Shown here: positions 10,515 through 61,983 of the stretch, in pieces
Position numbering within the stretch: position 1 is the first letter of the stretch
Layout: each line of letters starts with the position of its first letter
Assembly: GCF_963921235.1 (NCBI RefSeq)
Contig: NC_086097.1
Coordinates: forward strand, 49,912,001 to 49,976,000
Direction: 5' to 3'
Source of the DNA: Mobula hypostoma
Lineage: Eukaryota
DNA: 64,000 nucleotides
Translations under genes and position numbers: made by a program
The notes under the pieces: model-generated
Database searches by the model: none
What the model was told of the DNA's origin: nothing
The model's input: only the letters and a program-made list of their open reading frames with translations

Positions 10515-10670
10515 GACACATACAAAATGCTGGAGGAATTTGTGATGAAGTGTCTTGCACCTGAATTGTCAACTTTTTATTCCTTTCCATGGATGCTGCC
10601 TGACCTGGTGCATTTCTCCAGCATTTCGAGTTTGTTACTTTTGGATTTCCAGCATTTGCAGAATCTTTTG
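10515..10670 (+). repeat. Degenerate Penelope-type palindromic end repeat
   Basis: acacatacaaaatgctggagga ... gatgctgcctgacctg ... ctccagcattt; same family as the copies at 16.6, 22.9, 26.4, 35.8, 57.7 and 61.8 kb. Confidence 0.65.
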
Positions 10671-10800
10671 TACTTATAACAATGAACAATCTTCTAAAAA
10701 TAATGTTATTACCCAAACCTTAATACAATTATATCATTGTGAAATCTTTTTTATTAACAAATTATCTTCTGATTGTTAACTTGACTCTTTTCTATTCTAG

Positions 10801-16567: not shown

Positions 16568-16663
16568 ACACACATAAAAAAAATGCTGCCTGGCCTGCTG
16601 CGTTCACCAACATTTTTTGTGTGTGTTGCTTGAGTTTCCAGCATCTGCAGATTTCCTCGTGTT
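16568..16663 (+). mobile_element. Short Penelope-type palindromic insert with 16 bp flanking duplication
   Basis: TCAGTCATAATTAGCA at 16552-16567 and 16664-16679; internal atgctgcctggcctgctgcgttcacca shared with other copies; gcaacacac.../...gtgtgttgc inverted repeat. Confidence 0.75.
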
Positions 16664-17367: not shown

Positions 17368-17406
17368 ATGAAAACAGCCAGCGAAACGATCGGCTTCTCT
17401 ATGGTG
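17368..17406 (+). CDS. Candidate upstream (first) exon of PLD4, MKTASETIGFSMV
   Basis: ATG-initiated 13 codons ending at a consensus GTG|GTAAGT donor, phase 0, in frame with exon 40899; no homology support. Confidence 0.35.
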
Positions 17407-19074
17407 GTAAGTTCACACGTGCTGCTTTTCTGTTATCCAATACTGCACTGAAGTTATTCCTGACTTAAGCAGTTTTCTTAAAGTAGTAACCATGAATTTT
17501 GTTTTTGTGTGTTTTTGAATTCTTTCTTAATAGTTGATTTTGCACAATTGTAAAGACTAAAACAAAAGGTGGTCCTTGGCATCAAATGCATTAAATGGAT
17601 GTAAGCCCTCTTCCCAATCTTAGTCCTTAATGAAAATTAAATTAATATAATTTCAGTGCCTTAGTTACTGAATGAGTTCAGATGATCTTATAATGAATTC
17701 CTTTGAATATACACAAAATCTAATCATTGAAGTGAGCTGCTCCTTTAATTCTTGTGTACAAGGTCAGATAATGGACAATGCAGTGGTCTTCTACTTCAAC
17801 CTTTGTAATCAGGGCCAATTTATTAACGCAATGGTGAAAAGCATTCAAATGACAATTGCGTACTTACTGATTCAAACATTTTCCTCCAAATGTTTAAACT
17901 GATGTTGCCCTTTTATACTTCCAACAAGGCATTGTCTTACAATTGGAATTTACCATTCATTATCCTCATTCAAACCTTACCTAATGTCTACATACTCACC
18001 AGGTAAACAGTACTGATTAACACCTGGAAGCCTGGCAGATTAGGCATTTTTTTTCTCTCAACCGGCAAATTGTTGAGGTTTGAACACCTGAGTTTAACTA
18101 ATTTGCCACAAATTGAGCGTGTGACCTTGTTCTATAGAGTGCAGCTTGTAAATCAACAAGCTTGTTTAAACATTGGGTAAGTGATTTAAAATGCTACTGA
18201 GCTGCAGAGAATGTTGTGGAACAAGGACAGTAGCTTCCAATAAGTGAATTTGTAAAAAGTGAATAATGTAGTCAAACAAGAACCCAAACATACATTTGAA
18301 ATCTACAGATGCACTAATGTGTATTTTTGGACTGCTGTTGTTATTTTCAGTTCCTTTGTATAACTGTATCTTTGCTATGTGCAGTAGATCATATGAGGCA
18401 GAATTAAAGCTATGCATTTGATCTAACAGCATTTCAATTAATGGCTTCAAATGCAAAGCCAATATGATTTAGATATGTATGTGGTTTCAAAGTGGAGGAT
18501 ATTTATGAGAGGTCATTTTTAATGCAAAGTATTTCTTAACTGGCAAATTGAGGTATTGGTTAATTTTCTGATATTGCATGATAACATTTTTAGTGCAATA
18601 TCTTAAATTGTTTGTGATTCAAGATAAATTACATTTCATTGGGTATAGGTGATGTATGTATGGCTATGTTGCTCATTTTAATACAGCATAACCAATATCA
18701 AGTGTGAAGATGTCATGAATTTTCTGCCAACAAGATCAGTGCTTTTTTATTTGTTCAGACACGTGAAGAGATTAAATCATAAGGGTTCATTACACTAAGA
18801 AAGAATAATTTTGAGTTTGTGGGATAAAATAACTTGGAGTTTTTGGCATTCAAATTCAATATCAAATTCTTTGTGGACTATCATGCTTCTCATGACCCAA
18901 AATGTTAACACAAAATAATTACAAGTGCTAAAATGACTAAAATCTGAAATACTTGAAATTAATATGCTCACTCCCATTAACCACGTTCATTTATAATAGC
19001 TTTGAAGATCAAATGGATTCAGAGAAGAATTCTGTGTGGCATGTTGTAATGCATTGGCATTCTACCATGACATA

Positions 19075-31096: not shown

Positions 31097-33810
31097 TAGA
31101 CCATAAGACAAAGGAGCAGAAGTAGGCCATTCGGCCCATCGAGTCTGCTCTGCCATTTTATCATGAGCTGATCCATTTTATCCTATTTAGTCCCACTGCC
31201 CCGCCTTCTCACCATAACCTTTGATGCCCTGGCTACTCAGATACCTATCAATCTCTGCCTTAAATACACCCAATGACTTGGCCTCCACTGCTGCCCGTGG
31301 CAACAAATTCCATAGATTCACCACCCTCTGACTAAAAAATTTTTTTCGTATTTCTGTTCTGAAAGGGTGCCCTTCAATCCTGAAGTCATGCCCTCTCGTA
31401 CTAGACTCCCCCATCATGGGAAACAACTTTGCCACATCCACTCTGTCCATGCCTTTTAACATTCGAAATGTTTCTATGAGGTCTCCCCTCATTCTTCTAA
31501 ACTCCAGGAATACAGTCCAAGAGTGGACAAACGTTCCTCATATGTTAACCCTCTCATTCCCAGAATCATTCTAGTGAATCTTCTCTGTATCCTCTCCAAC
31601 GTCAGCACATCCTTTCTTAAATAAGGAGACCAAAACTGCCCACAGTACTCCAAGTGAGGTCTCGCCAGCGCCTTATAGAGCCTCAACATCACATCCCTGC
31701 TCCTATACTCTATTCCTCTAGAAATGAATGCCAACATTGCATTCGCCTTCTTCACTACCGACTCAACCTGGAGGTTAACTTTAAGGGAATCCTGTACGAG
31801 GACTCCCAAGTCCCATTGCATCTCAGAACTTTGAATTCTTTCCCCATTTAAATAATAGTCTGCCCGTTTATTTTTTCTGCCAAAGTGCATAACCATACAC
31901 TTTCCAACATTGTACTTCATTTGCCACTTCTCTGCCCATTCTTCCAATCTATCCAAGTTTCTCTGCAGACTCTCCGTTTCCTCAGCACTACCGGCCCCTC
32001 CAGCTATCTTCGTATCGTCAGCAAACTTAGCCACAAAGCCATCTATTCCATAATCCAAATCGTTGATGTACAATGTAAAAAGAAGCGGCCCCAACACTGA
32101 TCCCTGTGGAACACCACTGGTAACCGGCAGCCAACCAGAATAGGATCCCTTTATTCCCACTCTCTGTTTCCTGCCAATCAGCCAACGCTCTATCCATGTA
32201 TGTAACTTTCCTGTAATTCCATGGGCTCATATCTTGTTAAGCAGCCTCATGTGTGGCACCTTGTCAAACGCCTTCTGAAAATCCAAATATACAACATCCA
32301 CTGCATCTCCCTTGTCTAGCCTACTGGTAATTTCCTCAAAAAATTGTAATAGGTTTGTCAGGCAGGATTTTCCTTTAAGGAATCCATGATGAGTTCTGCC
32401 TATCTTGTCATATGCCTCCAGGTACTCTGTATCCTCATCCTTGACAATCGACTCCAATAACTTCCCAACCACCGATATCAAGGTAACAGGTCTATAATTT
32501 CCTTTTTGCTTCCTTGCCCCCTTCTTAAATAGCGGGGTGACATTTGCAATCTTCCAGTCCTCCGGAACCATGCCAGAATCTATCGACTTTTGAAAGATCA
32601 TCGCTAATGCCTCCGCAATCTCCACAGCTACTTCCTTTAGAACACGAGGGTGCATTCCATCTGGTCCAGGAGATTTATTGACCTTTAGCCTATTCAGCTT
32701 CCTGAGTACTTTCTCTGTCGTAATTGTGACTGCGCACACTTCTCTTCTCTGCCACCCTTGAGTGTCCGGTATACTGCTGTCTTCCTCAATGAAGACTGAT
32801 GCAAAATACTTGTTCAGTTCCTCTGCCATCTCCTCATCTCCCAGAATTTCTCCAGTATCATTTTCTATCGGTCCTATATCTACTCTCACCTGTCTTTTAC
32901 TCTTTATATACTTGAAAAAGCTTTTAGTATCCTCTTGGATGTTATTTGCTAGTTTCCTTTCATAGTTAATCTTTTCTCTCTTAATGACCTTCTTAGTTTC
33001 CTTTTGTAAGGTTTTAAAGACTTCCTCTGTCTTCCCACTAATTTTTGCTTCCTTGTATGCTCTCTCCTTAGCTTTAACTTTGGCTTTGACTTCCCTTGTC
33101 AACCACGGTTGCATCCTTTTTCCACTCGAAAATTTCTTCTTTTTTGGAATATACCTGTCTTGCACATTCCTCATTTCTCGCATAAACTCCAGCCACTGCT
33201 GCTCTGCCGTCTTTCCTGCCAGTGTCTCTTCCCAGTCAACTTTGGCCAGTTCCTCTCTCATGCCACTGTAGTTTCCTTTACTCCACTGAAACACCGACAC
33301 ATCAGATTTCGGCTTCTCTTTTTCTAATTTCACAGTGAACTCAATCATGTTATGATCACTGCTTCCTAAGGGTTCCTTCACCTCAATCTCTCCAATCACC
33401 TCCAGTTCATTACACAATACCCAATCCAGTACAGCCGATCCCCTAGAGGGCTCAACAACAAGCTGTTCTAAAAAGCCATCTCGCGGACATTCTACAAATT
33501 CTCTCTCTTGAGATCCAGTGCCGACCTGATTTTTCCAATCTACTCGCATGTTAAAATCCCCCACAATTATCATAACACTGCCCTTCTGACAAGCCTTTTC
33601 TATTTCCAGTTGTAATTTGTAGTCCACATCCCTGCAGCTGTTTGGAGGCCTATAAATAACTGTCATCAGGGTCCTTTTACCCCTGCTATTCCTTAGCTCA
33701 CCCCATAAAGATTCTGCACCTTCCGATCCTATATCACCTCCTTCTAATGATTTAATATCATTTCTTACCAATAAAGCCACGCCTCCCCCTCTGCCTACCT
33801 TCCTATCCTT
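31097..33810 (-). mobile_element. Relatively young 5'-truncated CR1 LINE (APE endonuclease C-part plus RT)
   Basis: Long ORFs 32227-33780, 31489-32160 and 31187-31492 with IYRPP, GDFN, SDHN, YLDFQKAFDKV, GVPQGSVLGPLLF, KFADDTK; two frameshifts; intact 3' tail. Confidence 0.96.
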
Positions 33811-33966
33811 ATATATCCTTCCTTCCTATATATAAACACATATTGTAATGAAGTTTCCACACCAACTATCACCTTACTATATTTTGTACCTTCAAAACAT
33901 TAAACTAATTCAAAGGAAGTCCAAAATGTGATCAAACCTCAGGTTTACTTAAAGCGAGGCACGTGC

Positions 33967-35603
33967 AGCATCCCTGTTGCACCTGATGACCCTGTGATCT
34001 CTGTCTCAGAGGCCACTGTTAGGCTGTCTTTAAAGAGAGTGTACCCTTGCTAAGCAGAAGGTCCTGATGGAGTACCCGGTAAGGCTCTGAACACCTGCGC
34101 TAACCAACTAGCAGGAGTATTCAAGGACATTTTCAACCTCTCACTACTGTGGGCGGAAGTTCCCACTTGCTTCAAAAAGGTAACAATTATACCAGTGCCT
34201 AAGAAGAATAATGTGGGCTGCCTTAACGACTATCGCCCGGTAGCACTCACATCGACAGTGATGAAATGCCTTGAGAGGTTGGTCATGACTAGACTGAACT
34301 CCTGCCTCAGCAAGGACCTGGACCCATTGCAATTTGCCTATCGTTACAATAGGTCAATGGCAGACCAAATCTCAATGGCTCTTCACACGGCTTTAGACCA
34401 CCTGGACAACACAAACACCTACGTCAGGATGCTGTTCATCAACTATAGCTCAACATTTAATACCATCATTAACACAATCCTGATTGAGAAGTTGCAGAAC
34501 CTGGGCCTCTGTACCTCTCTCTGCAATTGGATTCTCGACTTCCTAACCAGAAGACCACAATCTGTGCGATTGGTGATAACATATCCTCTTCGCTGACTAT
34601 CAACAGTGGTGCGCCTCAGGGGTGTGTGCTTAGCTCACTGCTCTACTCTTTGTATACACACGACTGTATGGCTAGGCATAGCTGAAATGCCGTCTATAAA
34701 TTTGCTGATGATACAACCATTGTTGGTAGAATCTCAGGCGGTGACGAGAGGGCGTACAGGAGTGAGATGTGCCAACAAGTGGAATGGTGTCGCAGCAACA
34801 ACCTGGCACTCAACGTCAGTAAGACAAAAGAGCTGATTGTGGACTTCTGGAAGGGTAAGACGAAGGAACACGTACCAATCCTCATGGAGGGATCAGAAGT
34901 GGAGAGAGTGAGCAGCTTCAAGTTCCTGGGTGTCAAGATCTCTGAGGATCTAACCTCGTCCCAACATATCGATGTAGCTATAAAGAAGGCAAGACAGCGG
35001 CTATACTTTATTAGGAGTTTGAAACGATTTGGCATGTCAACAAATATACTCAAAAACTTTTATAGTTGTACCATGGAGAGCATTCTGACAGGCTGCATCA
35101 CTGTCTGGTATGGAGGGTCTACTGCACAGGACCGAAAGAAGCTGCAGAAGGTTGTAAATCTAGTCAGCTCCATCTTGGGAACTAGCCTGCAAAGTACCCA
35201 GGACATCTTCAGGGAGCGGTGTCTCAGAAAGGCAGTGCCCTTTATTAAGGGCCTCCAGCACCCAGGCATGCCCTTTTCTCGCTGTTACAATCAGGTAGGA
35301 GATACAGAAGGTTCTTCCCCTCTGCCAGCTAATTCCTGAATGGACATTGAATCTTTGGACACGACCTCACTTTTTAAAAAAATATACAGTATCTCTCTTT
35401 TTGCACATTTTTAAAAATCTATTCAATGCATGTAATTGTTTTACTTGTCTATTTATTATTATAATTATTGTTTTTATTTTATTTATCATTATTGTTATTA
35501 TTTTTCTCTGTTATTTTATGTATTACATTGAACTGCTGCTGCTAAGTTTATAAATTTCGCATCATATGCTGCTGATAATAAACTGGCATACGATTCTGAT
35601 TCT
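33967..35603 (+). mobile_element. Rex1/Babar LINE RT fragment nested in the LTR
   Basis: [58 protein letters not shown]; ends in a (GATTCT)n tail. Confidence 0.9.
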
Positions 35604-35726
35604 AATACATATCACATGGTAGCATGAGGACGCATGCAATTCACGTATTTAAACATATAACATGTAATTAATTATTCAAAGCAACAAGAATGTTTAATCA
35701 ACTATATACATACGAGATTACTCAAA

Positions 35727-35899
35727 CCCCCTCCTGTCGTCTCCTATCACTTCGGATCTCCCCCTCCCCCCTCACTTTCAAATCTCTTACTAGCTCTTCT
35801 TTCAGTTAGTCCTGACGAAGGGTCTCGACCCGAAACGTCGACTGTACCTCTTGCTAGAGATGCTGCCTGGCCTGCTGCGTTCACCAGCAACTTTGATGA
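35727..35899 (+). mobile_element. Penelope-type 3' end insert with 12 bp flanking duplication
   Basis: AGATTACTCAAA at 35715-35726 and 35900-35911; pyrimidine-rich segment, hammerhead-like core and family palindrome, collinear with the 3' end of the Penelope element at 61.7-61.9 kb. Confidence 0.8.
35808..35843 (+). ncRNA. Minimal type I hammerhead ribozyme motif (Penelope-associated)
   Basis: AGUC-CUGACGA-A-GGGUC(UC)GACCC-GAAA-C-GUC-GACU: stem I AGUC/GACU, intact core, stem II hairpin, palindromic ACGU in place of stem III. Confidence 0.7.
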
Positions 35900-36279
35900 A
35901 GATTACTCAAATATTACTGAAATACTAAATATACAACACTCCTCCCTGCTTAGCTATAAACTCCAATTCAATAGAGAATGCATTTCTCATAAAACACAGT
36001 ATTTTATATAGTACACCTAATATACAGTATACAGACATCCGCAGTATAGAGAATTTTAAATTGTCCCATTCAGGCCTGAAGCTTTAATCATTCTGAAGCC
36101 TTTCTTATTCTTGTGGGATAACATCTTTCCTGACCAGGGGAGTCACTCTGCCTGGCTGGTGAGAATTTTGGCTGTGAAATAATCTCAGGTTCTGGGGCCT
36201 CCTCCGTGGTGTTTGTAAGACTTGACTTAGAGATCACAGTAAATGATTCTGATAGTGGTAGCCACCTTTCTTCTCCTAA

Positions 36280-36802
36280 TTTGTGCATCTTGATCTTGGA
36301 AAAGTGCTTTTAGTTCACGGAAGTATTCTCTTAATCTCTCTGTTGCTCCTATTATCATCTGATCGCTCCTCCTGGTTTCCTCATCCACAGCGTTATGTGG
36401 CAAATCTTTTTTCATATCTCCGCTGACTCCTTTCTTTCTGGTTGTCCATTCATCCAGCTGGGCTTTGGACGTTGCATTTGCTTTTACAAACAGCTCTTTG
36501 TCTCCCACTTGAAGTTCATGCAATAACCTTAATGCATGTAGAGTAGATTCTGGTTCTCGCAAAAGCTAAATGCTTGCAACTTTCCTGAAGCTCCTTGAAC
36601 TCTCTTACAGCTTAAAACCAAGCCACATTTTGCAAGTAACTGTCTGATTAACATATCAAAAGCTTTCTCAGATGCATTGCTTACAAAAACTGTTGTAGTC
36701 AGACCACTGCTTTCATCACTTTCACACTTCCTCTGAGCAACATGGGTCCTTCCTTGGTCCCATATGCCTCCCGACCAGAGGCACAGAGGTTGTCACCAAC
36801 GC
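36280..36802 (-). pseudogene. RBM25: Processed RBM25 fragment (RRM region) inside the LTR element
   Basis: Translates as LVGRHMGPRKD / DESSGLTTTVFVSNASEKAFDMLIRQLLAKCGLVLSCKRVQGASGKLQAFSFCE / EPESTLHALRLLHELQVGDKELFVK...KAQLDEW...DEETRRSDQMI, matching RBM25 TTTVFVGNISEKASDMLIRQLLAKCGLVLSWKRVQGASGKLQAFGFCEYKEPESTLRALRLL; no introns; frameshifts. Confidence 0.92.
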
Positions 36803-36973
36803 CTGTTTGTCATCCTTTGGGCAACGGTTCATGGTGTTCGGCATGAGACTGTTGTGGCATCATCCAGTAACTTTCTTAATTTGCTTTCAGTTGGCTTTGT
36901 TGCAGAGAATGTGGCATGCAAACTGCGGATGGATCTCCAATCAAGTTGCAGATGTCTCAGCCAATCACGCACC

Positions 36974-37888
36974 CACTGTGAGCTCTCAGATTACCACAGT
37001 TTTCAGACTGCTGGATCACAAGACCAAGTCTGGTCTGAGAGTTGTAGTAGCTATCTCGGGGGGGAAATATTAGCCTTTTGTCAAGGCCGACAGCCATGTT
37101 CCAGTCACGAGCAGGCTGACAACAACCATGTCACTGAGGGTGGCTCTGTCTGTCCTTGCCGGACCAAGGGGATGGTGGTTCTTCCAGTCATATGGGGCTT
37201 AGAGTTGTTATTCAGCCTTTGCTTCTCCACAATGGATGCCAAACATCTGATGACCTGGTTTTGCCTCCATGTGTATCTTCTTTGAGTGAGGCTTATTTTG
37301 CAAGATGAGAGGATGTGCTTGAAGTTTGCTGTTCTTCCACAGAGTGGACAAGCTGGGTCTTCACCGAGCTTCAGTTTATTGGTTCAGATTTTTGGGCATT
37401 GGGAGAACATCATAAACAGCTCTTATAAGGAAGCTAATCTTTCTTCCTTCCTTTTCCCATAAGTCTTTCCAGCTGAATTTTCTTTTCTCAATGTTTTCTC
37501 ACCTTGTCCACTGTCCCCCTTTTGCCCGAGACACTACTCTAGCACTCCTCATCTGCTCCTCCTGTCGCCATACTTCCTCCCCCACCATAGCTTGCCTTTG
37601 CTTCTGTTTTGTCGCCTTTTGCCAAATGGGCCTATTTGAGCTTGTGCCAAGGCCTCATCTTCCACATTGCACTGGCCCACTATGCCTGCAAACCAGAGTT
37701 CTGCCTTTTCCTGATTTACTGACTCTGCTGGAAGTCACTTTCTACCTGGTTAAGGTCCTGGGTGCAGTATCCTGGACAACTCTGTCACAAGATTCCAAGA
37801 GAGTCATCTTAAACCTCACCTTGGCACATTTGAACTCTTCAGTCAGCCCTGTGACAGGCCACTCCAGAGTTCCTTTGCCACACAGGTA
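36974..37888 (-). mobile_element. Internal fragment of a HERO-type (restriction-like endonuclease) non-LTR retrotransposon
   Basis: Translates as LCGKGTLEWPVTGLTEEFKCAKVR, RKFSWKDL, ISFLIRAVYDVLP, EDPACPLC...KHILSSC...YTWRQNQV (zinc knuckle), TTLRPDLVL*S...ELTV (RLE PD..E motif); stops and frameshifts. Confidence 0.82.
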
Positions 37889-38776
37889 GATCCAATCATC
37901 TGTTGTGTAATCAAATGTGACAATTTTTCTGACTTAGCCAGCCATTTCTACTTTTTATGATTATTATCACATGTTACTCACTTTTTATGAACCTGCAAAT
38001 TCTTCTATTTTCTGACTTTTTAAAAACTTGATTGTGTCTTCCCTTCCAAAGAACATGTGCTGCTCTCCTTTTGTAAAACTTGACTGTCTCTGCATGTGCT
38101 GTGCTGCAATTTTTTTCACTCACCGTTCCTCAACACATTTTTTCAGTTCGGACGTTTTTGCTACACTTCAACAGGTCAATAGCCGTCTCGGGTTTGCTTC
38201 ATCCTTTCTATTTCTCCCTCCTCAAAACAACCAGGCTTCGCAATTCTTCTCATCTGCCTCTAAACTTGCCACAATCTCCTCCACCCCTGTGTGGACCTTT
38301 ACAGCCATTTATGGGGGGCCTACTGATTAAAACTTTCAGCCGCCTGCCAGGCTTATTAAATTGCTGAACAATGTTCTTTTAAATTGCAGCATTAAATTCA
38401 AAATTTAATGGCTCCTATTTGAGTGCTGTCCGGACTCAGCTGTGACTCGCCCTTATAATCAACCAGTAATACGCAAGGATATTCTACACTCATTTCCATC
38501 CTAATAAAGCTGAATTTTCTGAGTTCTCCTGAACTTAATCAATATAAGTTTCTGTGTCAATATTCAGAATGAAAATTGACTGTAGGCTTGCCATGCACTC
38601 AGCTTGAACTTTCAAGGAAGTCTAATGCACAAAACCACTCCACTCACTGCCTTCAAAATGGTGTTACTTTTGCTATTTAATGCTCTTGAATTTATTGAAG
38701 TTTGTATTTATTAATCCATGCACTAAACAGGAACAAAATTACATTCAGTTGTCCTCTTTCTCTGGCCCTCTGACTG

Positions 38777-39092
38777 GAAGGTAGAAGGAGTCAATTTTAG
38801 AAAACATAGCACATTAATTTTTCAACATAGTCCCCTCCTACATGTACACACTTAGTCCAGCGGTCATGGAGCATACAGATCCCTTCTTTGTAGAAATCGG
38901 CGTCTTGGACCTCCAGAAGTGGTCCACAGCAGCGGTAATTGATAAGTTTGTGGCCTAGGGTAGAAGGAAATGAGTTCTACAGCTCTCGTCACATGCACGT
39001 GCAGTTCAACTCTTTGAGTGATTATGCAGAAAGTTGGAAGTTAATAACTCATCTCCTTCTACCTTAGGCCACGAACCTATCAATCACCCCCC
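38777..39092. mobile_element. Mariner-type MITE, copy 1
   Basis: Repeated TIR-like unit tgataagttt/cgtggcctaaggtagaagga; similar to the reverse-orientation copy at 54.6-54.8 kb. Confidence 0.7.
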
Positions 39093-40711: not shown

Positions 40712-40898
40712 TTACAGAAGTGTAGTGTCCTTCCATATGGCCACCTGACAAAACATCAGTGAATAACTTGAGTTGTGATATATCTAATTCTTTACTTATG
40801 ATGACAGCAGTTTACTCTGACCTCAATCATCTTGGAAAGCTGTAAACATAACACAACAGTGCAGTGTCAAAGTATGTGTCCCTTTTATCTCCCCACAG

Positions 40899-40976
40899 AT
40901 GAAGCCTTTCGGAAACCTATATCAACTGCAGCATATGTTGAAAGACAAATGCCACAGGAAAGACATCAACAAATGG
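40899..40976 (+). CDS. PLD4: PLD4 N-terminal cytosolic exon (MKPFGNLYQLQHMLKDKCHRKDINKW)
   Basis: Strong pyrimidine tract plus CAG|ATG, GTAAAT donor, 78 nt phase 0; MKP...YQ resembles the PLD3/4 N-terminus. Confidence 0.7.
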
Positions 40977-44800: not shown

Positions 44801-45227
44801 ATTAGCACACAATAAAAATACTGGCTATTGTGAAGTGTTTAATCTGATCTGTTCTAAAAATCTCACATTTAATCGAGTCTTCCAGGTACCAGTAAAGTAG
44901 GTGTGCTTTTAATTGGCAGCAGCACCATATTTTAGAATGATAATTCCAATACAGCTGAGGAACTCAAGTTTGTAAATATATTCCTTGAAATGATATTTAT
45001 GACCTGGTATCTGCCGTCTACCAGGTCATAAATATCATTTGAAAGAATGTATTTACAAACTTGAGTTCCTCAGCTGTATTGGAATTATCATTCTAAAATA
45101 TGGTGCTGCTGTTAATTAAAAGCACGCCTATTTTACTGGTACCTGGAAGACTCAATTAAATGTAAGATTTTTAGAACAGACCAGATTAAACATTTCACAA
45201 TAACCAGTATTTTTATTGTGTGCTAAT
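44801..45227. repeat. Long inverted repeat, ~209 bp arms with 9 nt spacer
   Basis: 44801-45009 is the reverse complement of 45019-45227 with roughly a dozen mismatches, mostly transitions. Confidence 0.97.
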
Positions 45228-56057: not shown

Positions 56058-56246
56058 AGTTTCAGTTGAAATTCATTTTGATCCAGTGGACTTTTTCTAT
56101 GAAGTATTTAGCAGGGTATGAGGATATTCAACTGGTCGTTTTCCAACTGTATGCTTAGTTGAAAACGACCAGTCGAACATCCTCATATCCTGCTAAAGAC
56201 TTCATAGGAAAAGTCCACTGGATCAAAATGAATTTCAATTGAAACT
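56058..56246. repeat. Inverted repeat, ~90 bp arms with 8 nt loop
   Basis: 56058-56148 is complementary to 56157-56246 with a few mismatches and a 1 nt indel. Confidence 0.95.
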
Positions 56247-57636: not shown

Positions 57637-57735
57637 CGATTATCTGACGAAGGGTCTCGGCCTGAAACATCGACTGCGCCTCTTCCTATAGATGCTGCTT
57701 GGCCTGCTGCGTTCACCAGCAACTTTGATGTATGT
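57637..57735 (+). mobile_element. ~100 bp Penelope-end insert starting at the hammerhead core, with 20 bp flanking duplication
   Basis: TACTTTTCCATATTATCTGT at 57617-57636 and 57736-57755; CTGACGA-AGGGTCTCGGCCT-GAAAC-ATC-GACT inside. Confidence 0.8.
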
Positions 57736-60182: not shown

Positions 60183-60469
60183 GTGACTAACTTATTTCTT
60201 TCCTTTAAAAAGTTACTAGTTGCATCAAAGACTATCTGGATTTTATTAATTCTAGGTTAATTTATTAATGTAAGGATAAATACAGAAATGTATGTGGAGT
60301 AATCTCAGTTTGTATAAATTACTCATACTTTGAAACAGTCAGTAAAATATTTAGCATGTTGCTGTGAGGAATATTTAGAATTAATTTCTCATCATTCTTA
60401 GGGTCTTTAAATTCTATGGAGTTCCTAAAGGTATACTGGGCTTTAACTATTCCATGTTCCAAGCCTTCC

Positions 60470-61905
60470 CTGATAATGCTCCCAGGCTCTTTCTGCACTA
60501 CATTGATGACTGCATTGGTGCTTCATTGGCACCCATGCTGAGCTCATCAATTTCATCAACCTTCCCACCAACTTCCACCCTGCCCATAAATTTATTGCTC
60601 CATTTCTGACAACTTTCTCCCTTTTTCGATCTCTCTGACTCTATCTCTGGAAACAAACTGCCTACCAAAATCTTTATATATCTACCAATTCCCATGGCTA
60701 ACTTGACTATACCTCTTTCCACCCTGTCCCTGTCTCCTGTAAAACTGCCATACCCCTTTCTCAGTTCCTTCATCTCCACCACATCTGCTCCCAGGATGAG
60801 GCTTTTCTTTTCAGGACATCTGAGAAGTCCTCCTCCTTCAAAGAACAGGGTTTCCTTTCTGCGCAATTAATTCTGCTGTCTCCTGCATCTCCTCAGTTTC
60901 CTGGACAGCCATGCTCATCCCTTCTTTCTGCCCCTTAACAGTGATAGAGTTCCTCTTGTTCTCACCTACCACCCCATGAGCCTCCACGTCCAACACATCA
61001 TTCTCCTCAACATCTGCCATCTTCAACAGCACCCTACCATCAAATACATCTTTACCTCCACCCAACTCACCGCTTTCTGCAGGGATTGCTCCTCTATGAC
61101 TCCCTTGTCCACTTGTCCCTCCCCACTGTTCTCCCTGCTGGCACTTACCGAACAAGCAGAGCGGCACATTCACTTTCTCCCTCACCTCCATTCAAGGCCC
61201 CAGACAGTCCTTCCAGGTGAGGCAACACTTCACCTGTGAATCTTTTGGGATTGTCTAATGCGTCTGGTGCTCCCGGAGCAGCTCCCTCTACACTGGTGAG
61301 ACCCAACATAGATTGGGGGACCAATTTGATGAGTACCTCTGCTCTATCTGCAAAAAACAGAATTTCCCAGCGGCCAACCATTTAAATTCCTATCTCCATT
61401 CTTGTTCCAACATGTCAGTCCATGGTTTCCTCTTCTGCCATGATGAAGCCGCTCTCCGGGTGGAAGAGAAACGCCTCATATTCCACCTAGGTAGTCTCCA
61501 ACCAGATGGTATGAACATGGATGACTCCAACCTCCAGCAATTTTTCCCTCCCCTTCCATCTTTTTCAATTCTCCACTCTAGTATCTTACCTCTTCTCCTT
61601 GTCTGTCTATCACCCCCCCCCCCGGGTGCCCCTTCTCCTTTCCTCTCCTATCAGATTCCTTCTTCTCCAGCCCTTTGCCTTTTCCACATATCACTTCCCA
61701 GCTTCTTACCTCATTCCCCTCTCCCATCTGGCTTCACCTATCACCTTCTAGCTTGTCCTCCTTCCCTTTGCCCTCACTTTCTTCTTCTGGCATCTTCCCC
61801 CTTCCTTTCCAGTGCTGATGAAGATCTCAGCCCAAAACATCGACTTTATTTATTTCCATAGATGCTGTCTGACCTGCTGAGTTCCTCCAGCTTTTTGTGT
61901 GTATT
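60470..61905 (+). mobile_element. Penelope-like retroelement remnant (RT, GIY-YIG, 3' palindromic end)
   Basis: LFLHYIDDCIG (YIDD at ~60499), GIY-YIG remnant GIV*CVWC....LYTGET (~61248-61303), LIFHLGSLQPDGMN, pyrimidine-rich 3' region, degenerate hammerhead CTGATGA...AAAACATCGACT (61815-61845). Confidence 0.88.
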
Positions 61906-61983
61906 ATACTAGGCTTTGATTTTTCTTATACATAATGTGAATTCTTGTTGATTAGTAGTAATATAAACATTACTATTTTGTAG

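Follow-up and report, generated by a model that had tools for sequence, protein, structure and literature searches.

A minimal hammerhead ribozyme motif that lies sense within a long intron of a predicted PLD4 isoform in the ray Mobula hypostoma is very probably an ordinary, inert passenger, left there by the recent insertion of the end of a Penelope-like element (PLE), a reading that draws on modelled folding and on analogy with PLEs studied in other animals.

The motif and its class

On the plus strand of the window, the whole 64-kb stretch of DNA that was analysed, the 36 letters at 35808–35843 are as a sequence-only reading had quoted them. Stem I pairs 35807–35811 with 35840–35844 (5 bp), its 5′ strand being 35808–35811 and a U.G pair extending it to 35807. 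The catalytic core with one extra letter takes up 35812–35819, C3–A9 being 35812–35818 and the extra A, A35819, lying between positions 9 and 10.1. Stem II (35820–35831) had been drawn with 5 bp and a 2-nt loop, a size unfeasible for a hairpin loop; folding programs give instead 4 bp and a CUCG loop, with closure by G10.1–C11.1. Then, at 35832–35839, come G12–A15.1 (35832–35835) and C15.2, G16.2, U16.1 and C17 (35836–35839), and the loopless palindrome ACGU that replaces stem III is at 35835–35838. The predicted cut after C35839, at 35839/35840, is placed by the established hammerhead numbering.

In a search with a relaxed descriptor of minimal hammerheads, the motif, its core intact, is the single match on both strands of the window. 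Any match to this descriptor occurs in 17 of 500 dinucleotide shuffles and a loopless stem III together with stems I and II of at least 4 bp each in none of the 500; with the family context described below, these shuffles rule out a chance motif. The folding z-score is modest (−1.67, with 11 of 200 shuffles as good) and carries no weight in the argument. Rfam gives no match at the gathering score across the whole window and, for 35600–36000 searched to E=10, two matches of which neither is to a hammerhead family, as would be expected because stem III is loopless. The motif pattern has no match in metagenome_contigs and none in viral_contigs.

Judged by five sequence features set out for PLE minimal hammerheads (PMC4209133), the motif is a member of that class, as had been proposed: the core CUGANGA ... 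GAAA ... UH is intact; the topology is type I, with a helix I of 4–5 bp and G10.1–C11.1 closing helix II; A35819 is the extra A; ACGU at 35835–35838 serves as the loopless, palindromic 15.2–16.2; and the motif sits in a PLE terminal repeat. The set of Cervera and De la Pena (2014, PMC4209133) likewise has no helix III or loop 3, has a short helix I and consists mostly of dispersed single copies from truncated PLEs, whereas the present host is a ray, cartilaginous fishes going unnamed in the portion of that text available, and helix II is of 4 bp here against 7–8 bp in the S. mansoni families described there. Among the papers listed by literature searches none deals with a PLE hammerhead in rays or sharks, though supplements might list the family; two supplementary files of PMC4209133 have no matches for shark and skate terms.

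The insert and its target site

The 173-bp insert that had been claimed to contain the motif (35727–35899, +) is confirmed, bounded by two identical 12-mers, the left copy (35715–35726, +) and the right copy (35900–35911, +) of a target-site duplication (TSD) whose rough chance is 1.7e-4 (900 placements). Without an ORF, it is the 5′-truncated end of a PLE, a fragment of its pLTR. Contigs of the public runs X1, X5, X12 and X16, of which X12 has another organism label, were aligned at 80% likeness; family likeness stops at 35898, after which the family contigs differ. A second family-wide block, which is also the 3′ end of the insert (35858–35898, +), has the highest summed depth in X1, X5 and X16 and the third highest in X12, and by analogy with the element described in PMC11167929 it is likely where reverse transcription began. 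A junction contig in X1 (record 1), which may be from the source sample, reaches 30 letters into the insert, below the 31-letter bar, and is not counted as bridging.

The insert landed in an older dispersed repeat (window 35600–35952) that has no second copy within the window. On its minus strand TG at 35939 comes after a purine tract, as at the start of an LTR, and the repeat may be an LTR retrotransposon; Pfam finds nothing on the frame adjoining the repeat. Contigs in which the flanks are joined without the insert (35701 to 35899) number 7, 3 and 6 in X1, X5 and X12 among the joints listed (15 of 330), and those of X12 have 13 other letters in between, a net loss of 184 against the 185 expected. 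At 80% likeness the most fitting reading of such contigs is that they are further copies of the older repeat that received the insert, rather than an empty allele. Directly upstream of the insert are LINE remnants with RVT_1 and ALKBH8_N matches (34054–35339, +), and a further LINE remnant (32227–33825, −) has an open frame of 532 aa. Another frame (37105–37383, −) has a CxxC-type stretch for which Pfam gives only GmrSD_N (E 0.08), and which presumably recalls non-LTR elements with a restriction-like endonuclease.

The element and its relatives in the window

Comparison of the window with itself reveals six further pieces of the family. An older, decayed relative with remnants of reverse transcriptase (RT) and GIY-YIG (60455–61906, +), located by tblastn with P0014, P0040, P0144 and P0153 and by Pfam on those proteins, ends in the same hammerhead-type block, there broken by a change of G12 to A. 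Over 75 nt 35808–35882 is 76% identical to 61811–61884 (E 7e-11), and 19 nt near the start of the insert match 61635–61653. The view of the insert as a Penelope end is upheld in that its 3′ part resembles the end of an RT and GIY-YIG element, one that is an older relative, the young subfamily itself having no full-length member among the sequences examined. With the frame 61259–61552 as query, phmmer returned 360 proteins (best E 1e-21), the long matches carrying RVT_1 and a weak C-terminal GIY-YIG (P0040, P0144, P0153), a domain that is above the Pfam cut-off in one of the seven proteins scanned; by tblastn the RT/GIY-YIG relatives map back along 60433–61537. A lead came from the Atlas, in which 31% of one cluster has GIY-YIG. 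For the GIY-YIG-like remnant of the window itself, a word-index search for homologues gave 0 of 10 candidates, and Pfam does not recognize it. Two predicted proteins, P0015 and P0021, join this GIY-YIG-like stretch to host domains (DUF4518; RecQ5/SRI), these fusions being either exonised PLE pieces or gene-model errors.

The family is probably of Neptune type. The CxxC..YIG motif, with sufficient sequence upstream of it, is present in 70 of 150 protein matches, and a CX2-5CxxC linker, which sets Neptune and Nematis apart from Penelope/Poseidon (PMC8557442), is present in 39 of these 70, so a Neptune type is likely; the linker is present in the best matches P0014, P0015 and P0040 and illegible in the decayed remnant of the window. 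As in the Neptune-clade PLEs of Craig et al. (2021, PMC8557442), RT comes before a C-terminal GIY-YIG in which cysteines separate GIY from YIG, and inverted 5′-truncated pieces and tails are found in that clade as they are among the window copies. In Neptune-clade elements the linker precedes a GIY-YIG with a CCHH motif; here the linker is seen in related proteins and not in the window remnant. Poseidon_Ac (PAc) of Anolis carolinensis (Frangieh et al. 2024, PMC11167929) resembles the present case in having its hammerhead in the pLTR and an AT-rich target. PAc, though, belongs to the Penelope/Poseidon clade and has been assayed, while the window relative looks Neptune-type and is known here from its sequence; the PAc ORF starts at stem II (PMC11167929), and this copy has ACG in its core where an AUG could lie.

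The closest sibling of the insert (57637–57735, +) is 99 bp long with a 20-bp TSD and is 88.5% identical over 96 nt; it has kept the core, lacks the 5′ strand of stem I and has A for G16.2. Two other inserts, 10517–10673 (157 nt) and 16568–16663 (96 nt), have TSDs of their own, of 12 and 16 bp; both start with an inverted piece of the family 3′ end and both carry the tail, and both of their strands seem to have been primed. The four TSD-flanked copies have differing 5′ ends (173, 99, 157 and 96 nt), two of the four with an inverted 5′ piece, and end at two sites about 45–55 nt apart. Inverted 5′ pieces with an optional tail have been described for PLEs (PMC8557442), and in PAc two RT start sites downstream of the hammerhead account for such a tail (PMC11167929), to be compared with the two end sites here.

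These variable and in part inverted 5′ ends argue against the insert being a short non-autonomous element, retrozyme- or SINE-like, that moved as a unit and is not a truncated long PLE; such an origin, under which the copy would still be inert here, is unlikely. In its favor the 173 nt fall within the retrozyme range of 170–400 nt (PMC7229834), and a 2026 preprint describes tandem hammerhead repeats, along with PLEs, in one chondrichthyan genome (bioRxiv 10.64898/2026.07.22.740005). A few contigs also jump backward, some from 35838, a single letter short of the cut site, to 35797 or 35804 (depth 82 and 30) and some from 35898 to 35795; other places in these genomes seem to carry the motif in short tandem copies, which might be genuine cis dimers. 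At the locus there is no tandem unit, a tandem retrozyme being ruled out by the absence of any array in 33000–39000, and the motif is minimal and not of the canonical kind with a loop 1–loop 2 contact. Non-LTR retrozymes (PMC7229834; bioRxiv 10.64898/2026.07.22.740005) share with the insert a type I hammerhead, a short non-coding repeat and a relation to PLEs, but they form tandem arrays with mostly canonical hammerheads and circRNAs, and here there is a single copy with a TSD.

Abundance, conservation and age

The PLE family is very abundant. At 35810–35833 the summed depth in X1 is 4.4e6, against about 7 for the contigs of the locus itself, and over the motif it is of the same order in X5 and 0.8e6 in X12, none of these sums being a copy number. 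Among the loose-end rows listed (24 of 2058), 458 contigs of X1 fit only from 35808 on and 312 only up to 35845, and in all four runs the block 35808–35845 is common to contigs that diverge on both sides. Since the hammerhead block is common and its flanks differ, the comparison suggests that selection has acted on the motif in the lineage of the element, with the motif kept across subfamilies. Covariation scored on seven decayed window copies is no higher than in shuffles, 406 of 500 of which score at least as well, and this counts against the present reading. Family contigs are present in run X16, the RNA nature of which is a guess, and none of the eight pieces listed from it is from the locus itself; sites where many ends gather are absent from the listing, though contigs cannot reveal ends.

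Among the variant rows listed (40 of 255), the insert differs from the X1 family majority at four positions, 35770, 35772, 35828 and 35853, and the sole difference within the motif is A35828, for which the family has G (97.5% of summed depth in X1, 97% in X5, 99% in X16 and 92% in X12). This A, private to this copy, is a one-sided change that replaces a U.G pair of the family by U-A in stem II, the direction that selection on stem II would favor, and, for one site, it would speak against the passenger reading.

The motif of this copy is intact probably because the insert is young, being rich in CpG and having an unmutated TSD, and selection is not needed to account for it. Three of the five CpGs of the motif are on positions that matter (C11.1–G12, C15.2–G16.2 and C17–G1.1), three of the eight in the insert are outside the motif, the insert has a CpG o/e of 0.73 and the window one of 0.23, and the two TSD copies are identical at 12 of 12 positions. 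The motif is intact in none of five other window copies that extend over it; 21 of their 25 motif CpGs are lost, CpG-type transitions account for 21 of the 41 differences that they show, ACGU is kept in none and invariant core letters are changed in four. With assumed rates the rough neutral chance of staying intact is 0.13–0.41 at 2.3% divergence and 0.01–0.14 at 5%. There is no sign of host selection on this copy.

The PLD4 intron

Exon mapping with P0001 agrees with the earlier placement of the motif on the sense strand of a long PLD4 intron: motif and insert lie sense within intron 17407–40898 (23,492 nt) of a predicted PLD4 isoform. The upstream coding exon (17368–17406, +) has 13 codons, for residues 1–13 of P0001, and a GT donor at 17407, and the next exon (40899–40976, +) is preceded by an AG acceptor at 40897–98. 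The exons from 40899 to 63538 match Mobula proteins named PLD4 or PLD3-like at 98–100%. As P0002 starts at 40899, other PLD4 isoforms may begin elsewhere. Upstream, at 11 kb, there is a weak CEP170_C match (E 0.025). Two long, near-perfect inverted repeats are present in PLD4 introns, at 44801–45227 (93%, 427 nt) and 56058–56246 (90%, 192 nt).

Folding and the need for a partner

In the monomer C15.2 and G16.2 are neighbors and so stem III cannot close. The predicted minimum free energy (MFE) fold of the monomer, at −12.6 kcal/mol, pairs GACG of the core with CGUC, stems I and II alone being 4 kcal/mol higher (−8.6), and in a context of 173–500 nt stem I has a probability of 0.03–0.06. Swapped stems I together with stems II come to −16.4 without the ACGU helix, and the MFE of two strands, −35.3, is that of an inactive rod, but these energies leave out Mg2+, tertiary contacts and proteins and cannot fully represent the active dimer. 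In the published model of a reciprocal dimer two ACGU sequences pair and each core acts on the cut site of the other, with stem I formed between strands (PMC4209133; review PMC6765202). Among the 16 enzyme/substrate pairings of the four sense copies, only self-self is complete: the 57.6k copy, with its core kept, has 1 bp of stem I with the copy in the insert, and the 26.4k and 61.8k copies have broken cores, so that none of the other copies in PLD4 could form a cis dimer with it. For the S. mansoni minimal hammerhead, no cleavage of monomers and low cleavage of dimers have been reported (PMC4209133). The anole PLE hammerhead was cut only with the protein of the element, no RNA-seq reads ended at the cut, and insertion in vitro did not need hammerhead cutting (PMC11167929).

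Against this background it is decidedly unlikely that PLD4 pre-mRNA undergoes low-level cutting at the passenger, whether another intact family RNA provides the second half in trans or the PLE protein refolds the motif, even though all catalytic positions are intact, self-self pairing is complete and the family is very abundant. The ACGU helix that two strands would share is weak (−3.1 kcal/mol) and their MFE form is the inactive rod. A cut in mid-intron, moreover, need not stop splicing, and this counts against an effect of trans cutting. The assistance given by protein to the anole hammerhead (PMC11167929) favors such cutting, and the published rates, low even for covalent dimers (PMC4209133; PMC6765202), disfavor it.

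That any effect on PLD4 would come from a cryptic 3′ splice site, and not from cutting, is more doubtful again. Just 5′ of stem I is a pyrimidine tract resembling a splice acceptor (35781–35809, +), with AG at 35804–05 and at 35808–09; for these two the pyrimidine counts are 16/19 and 14/19, two genuine PLD4 acceptors having 16/19 and 13/19, and the 61.8k copy has the same layout with 18/19. In D. virilis the intron of Penelope reaches as far as the 5′ edge of helix I (PMC4209133). An exon of this sort is nevertheless absent from all three Mobula PLD4 proteins, and a protein search with the exonised frame, a weak test, gave 0 of 18 candidates. A tract with AG before stem I is present in the young (35781–35809) and the older (61788–61812) subfamilies, and the loose-end consensus before 35808 is pyrimidine-rich as well; the tract and AG may mark where an intron of the pLTR ends.

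It is hardly credible that the hammerhead has been domesticated for use in PLD4. One could cite in favor the intact, sense, intronic motif and a hint of a shared insertion (X5 record 25, of another organism label, has the left flank and 28 letters of the insert, below the 31-letter bar, with 6 differences in 224). The type I intronic hammerheads of amniotes (RECK, CTCL, DTNB; PMC6155905), however, have retained tertiary contacts and are conserved between distantly related species, unlike this young copy of a high-copy repeat, nested in another repeat, without stem III and without a partner.

For the preferred reading, that of an inert passenger, the course of events can be sketched in part from the locus and in part from other PLEs. 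PLE RNA would have been reverse-transcribed from a start near 35898, with copying stopping after about 172 nt, and the piece would have entered the AT-rich older repeat through a staggered cut, of which the 12-bp duplication is the observed trace. In tandem transcripts of the element itself, to judge from what is published for other PLEs, two motifs may pair through ACGU, swap stem I strands and cut each other, slowly and perhaps with the help of the element's protein. In PLD4 intron RNA, by contrast, the motif would be a lone monomer with a stem III of zero nucleotides, for which computed folds are inactive and competent partners lacking, and no meaningful cutting would be predicted. The copy would be intact while young and would be expected to decay by CpG loss like its neighbors.

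Implications

As read here the lone copy matters little, single minimal hammerhead motifs having already been described by the thousands per genome in fishes, coelacanth and Xenopus (PMC4209133). Rays, nevertheless, carry a very abundant and young PLE family with an intact minimal hammerhead, and so offer material for the in vivo role of PLE hammerheads. A long shot is that so many young, intact minimal hammerheads lie sense in introns of ray genomes that they expose host transcripts, while these are being made, to cutting in trans, through pairing with family RNA or with the aid of the PLE protein, in which case intron 1 of PLD4 would be severed at 35839/35840 and the long isoform dampened when the element is active. 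If lone intronic copies were indeed cut in this way, transposon activity would be tied to host pre-mRNA processing, and for many genes.
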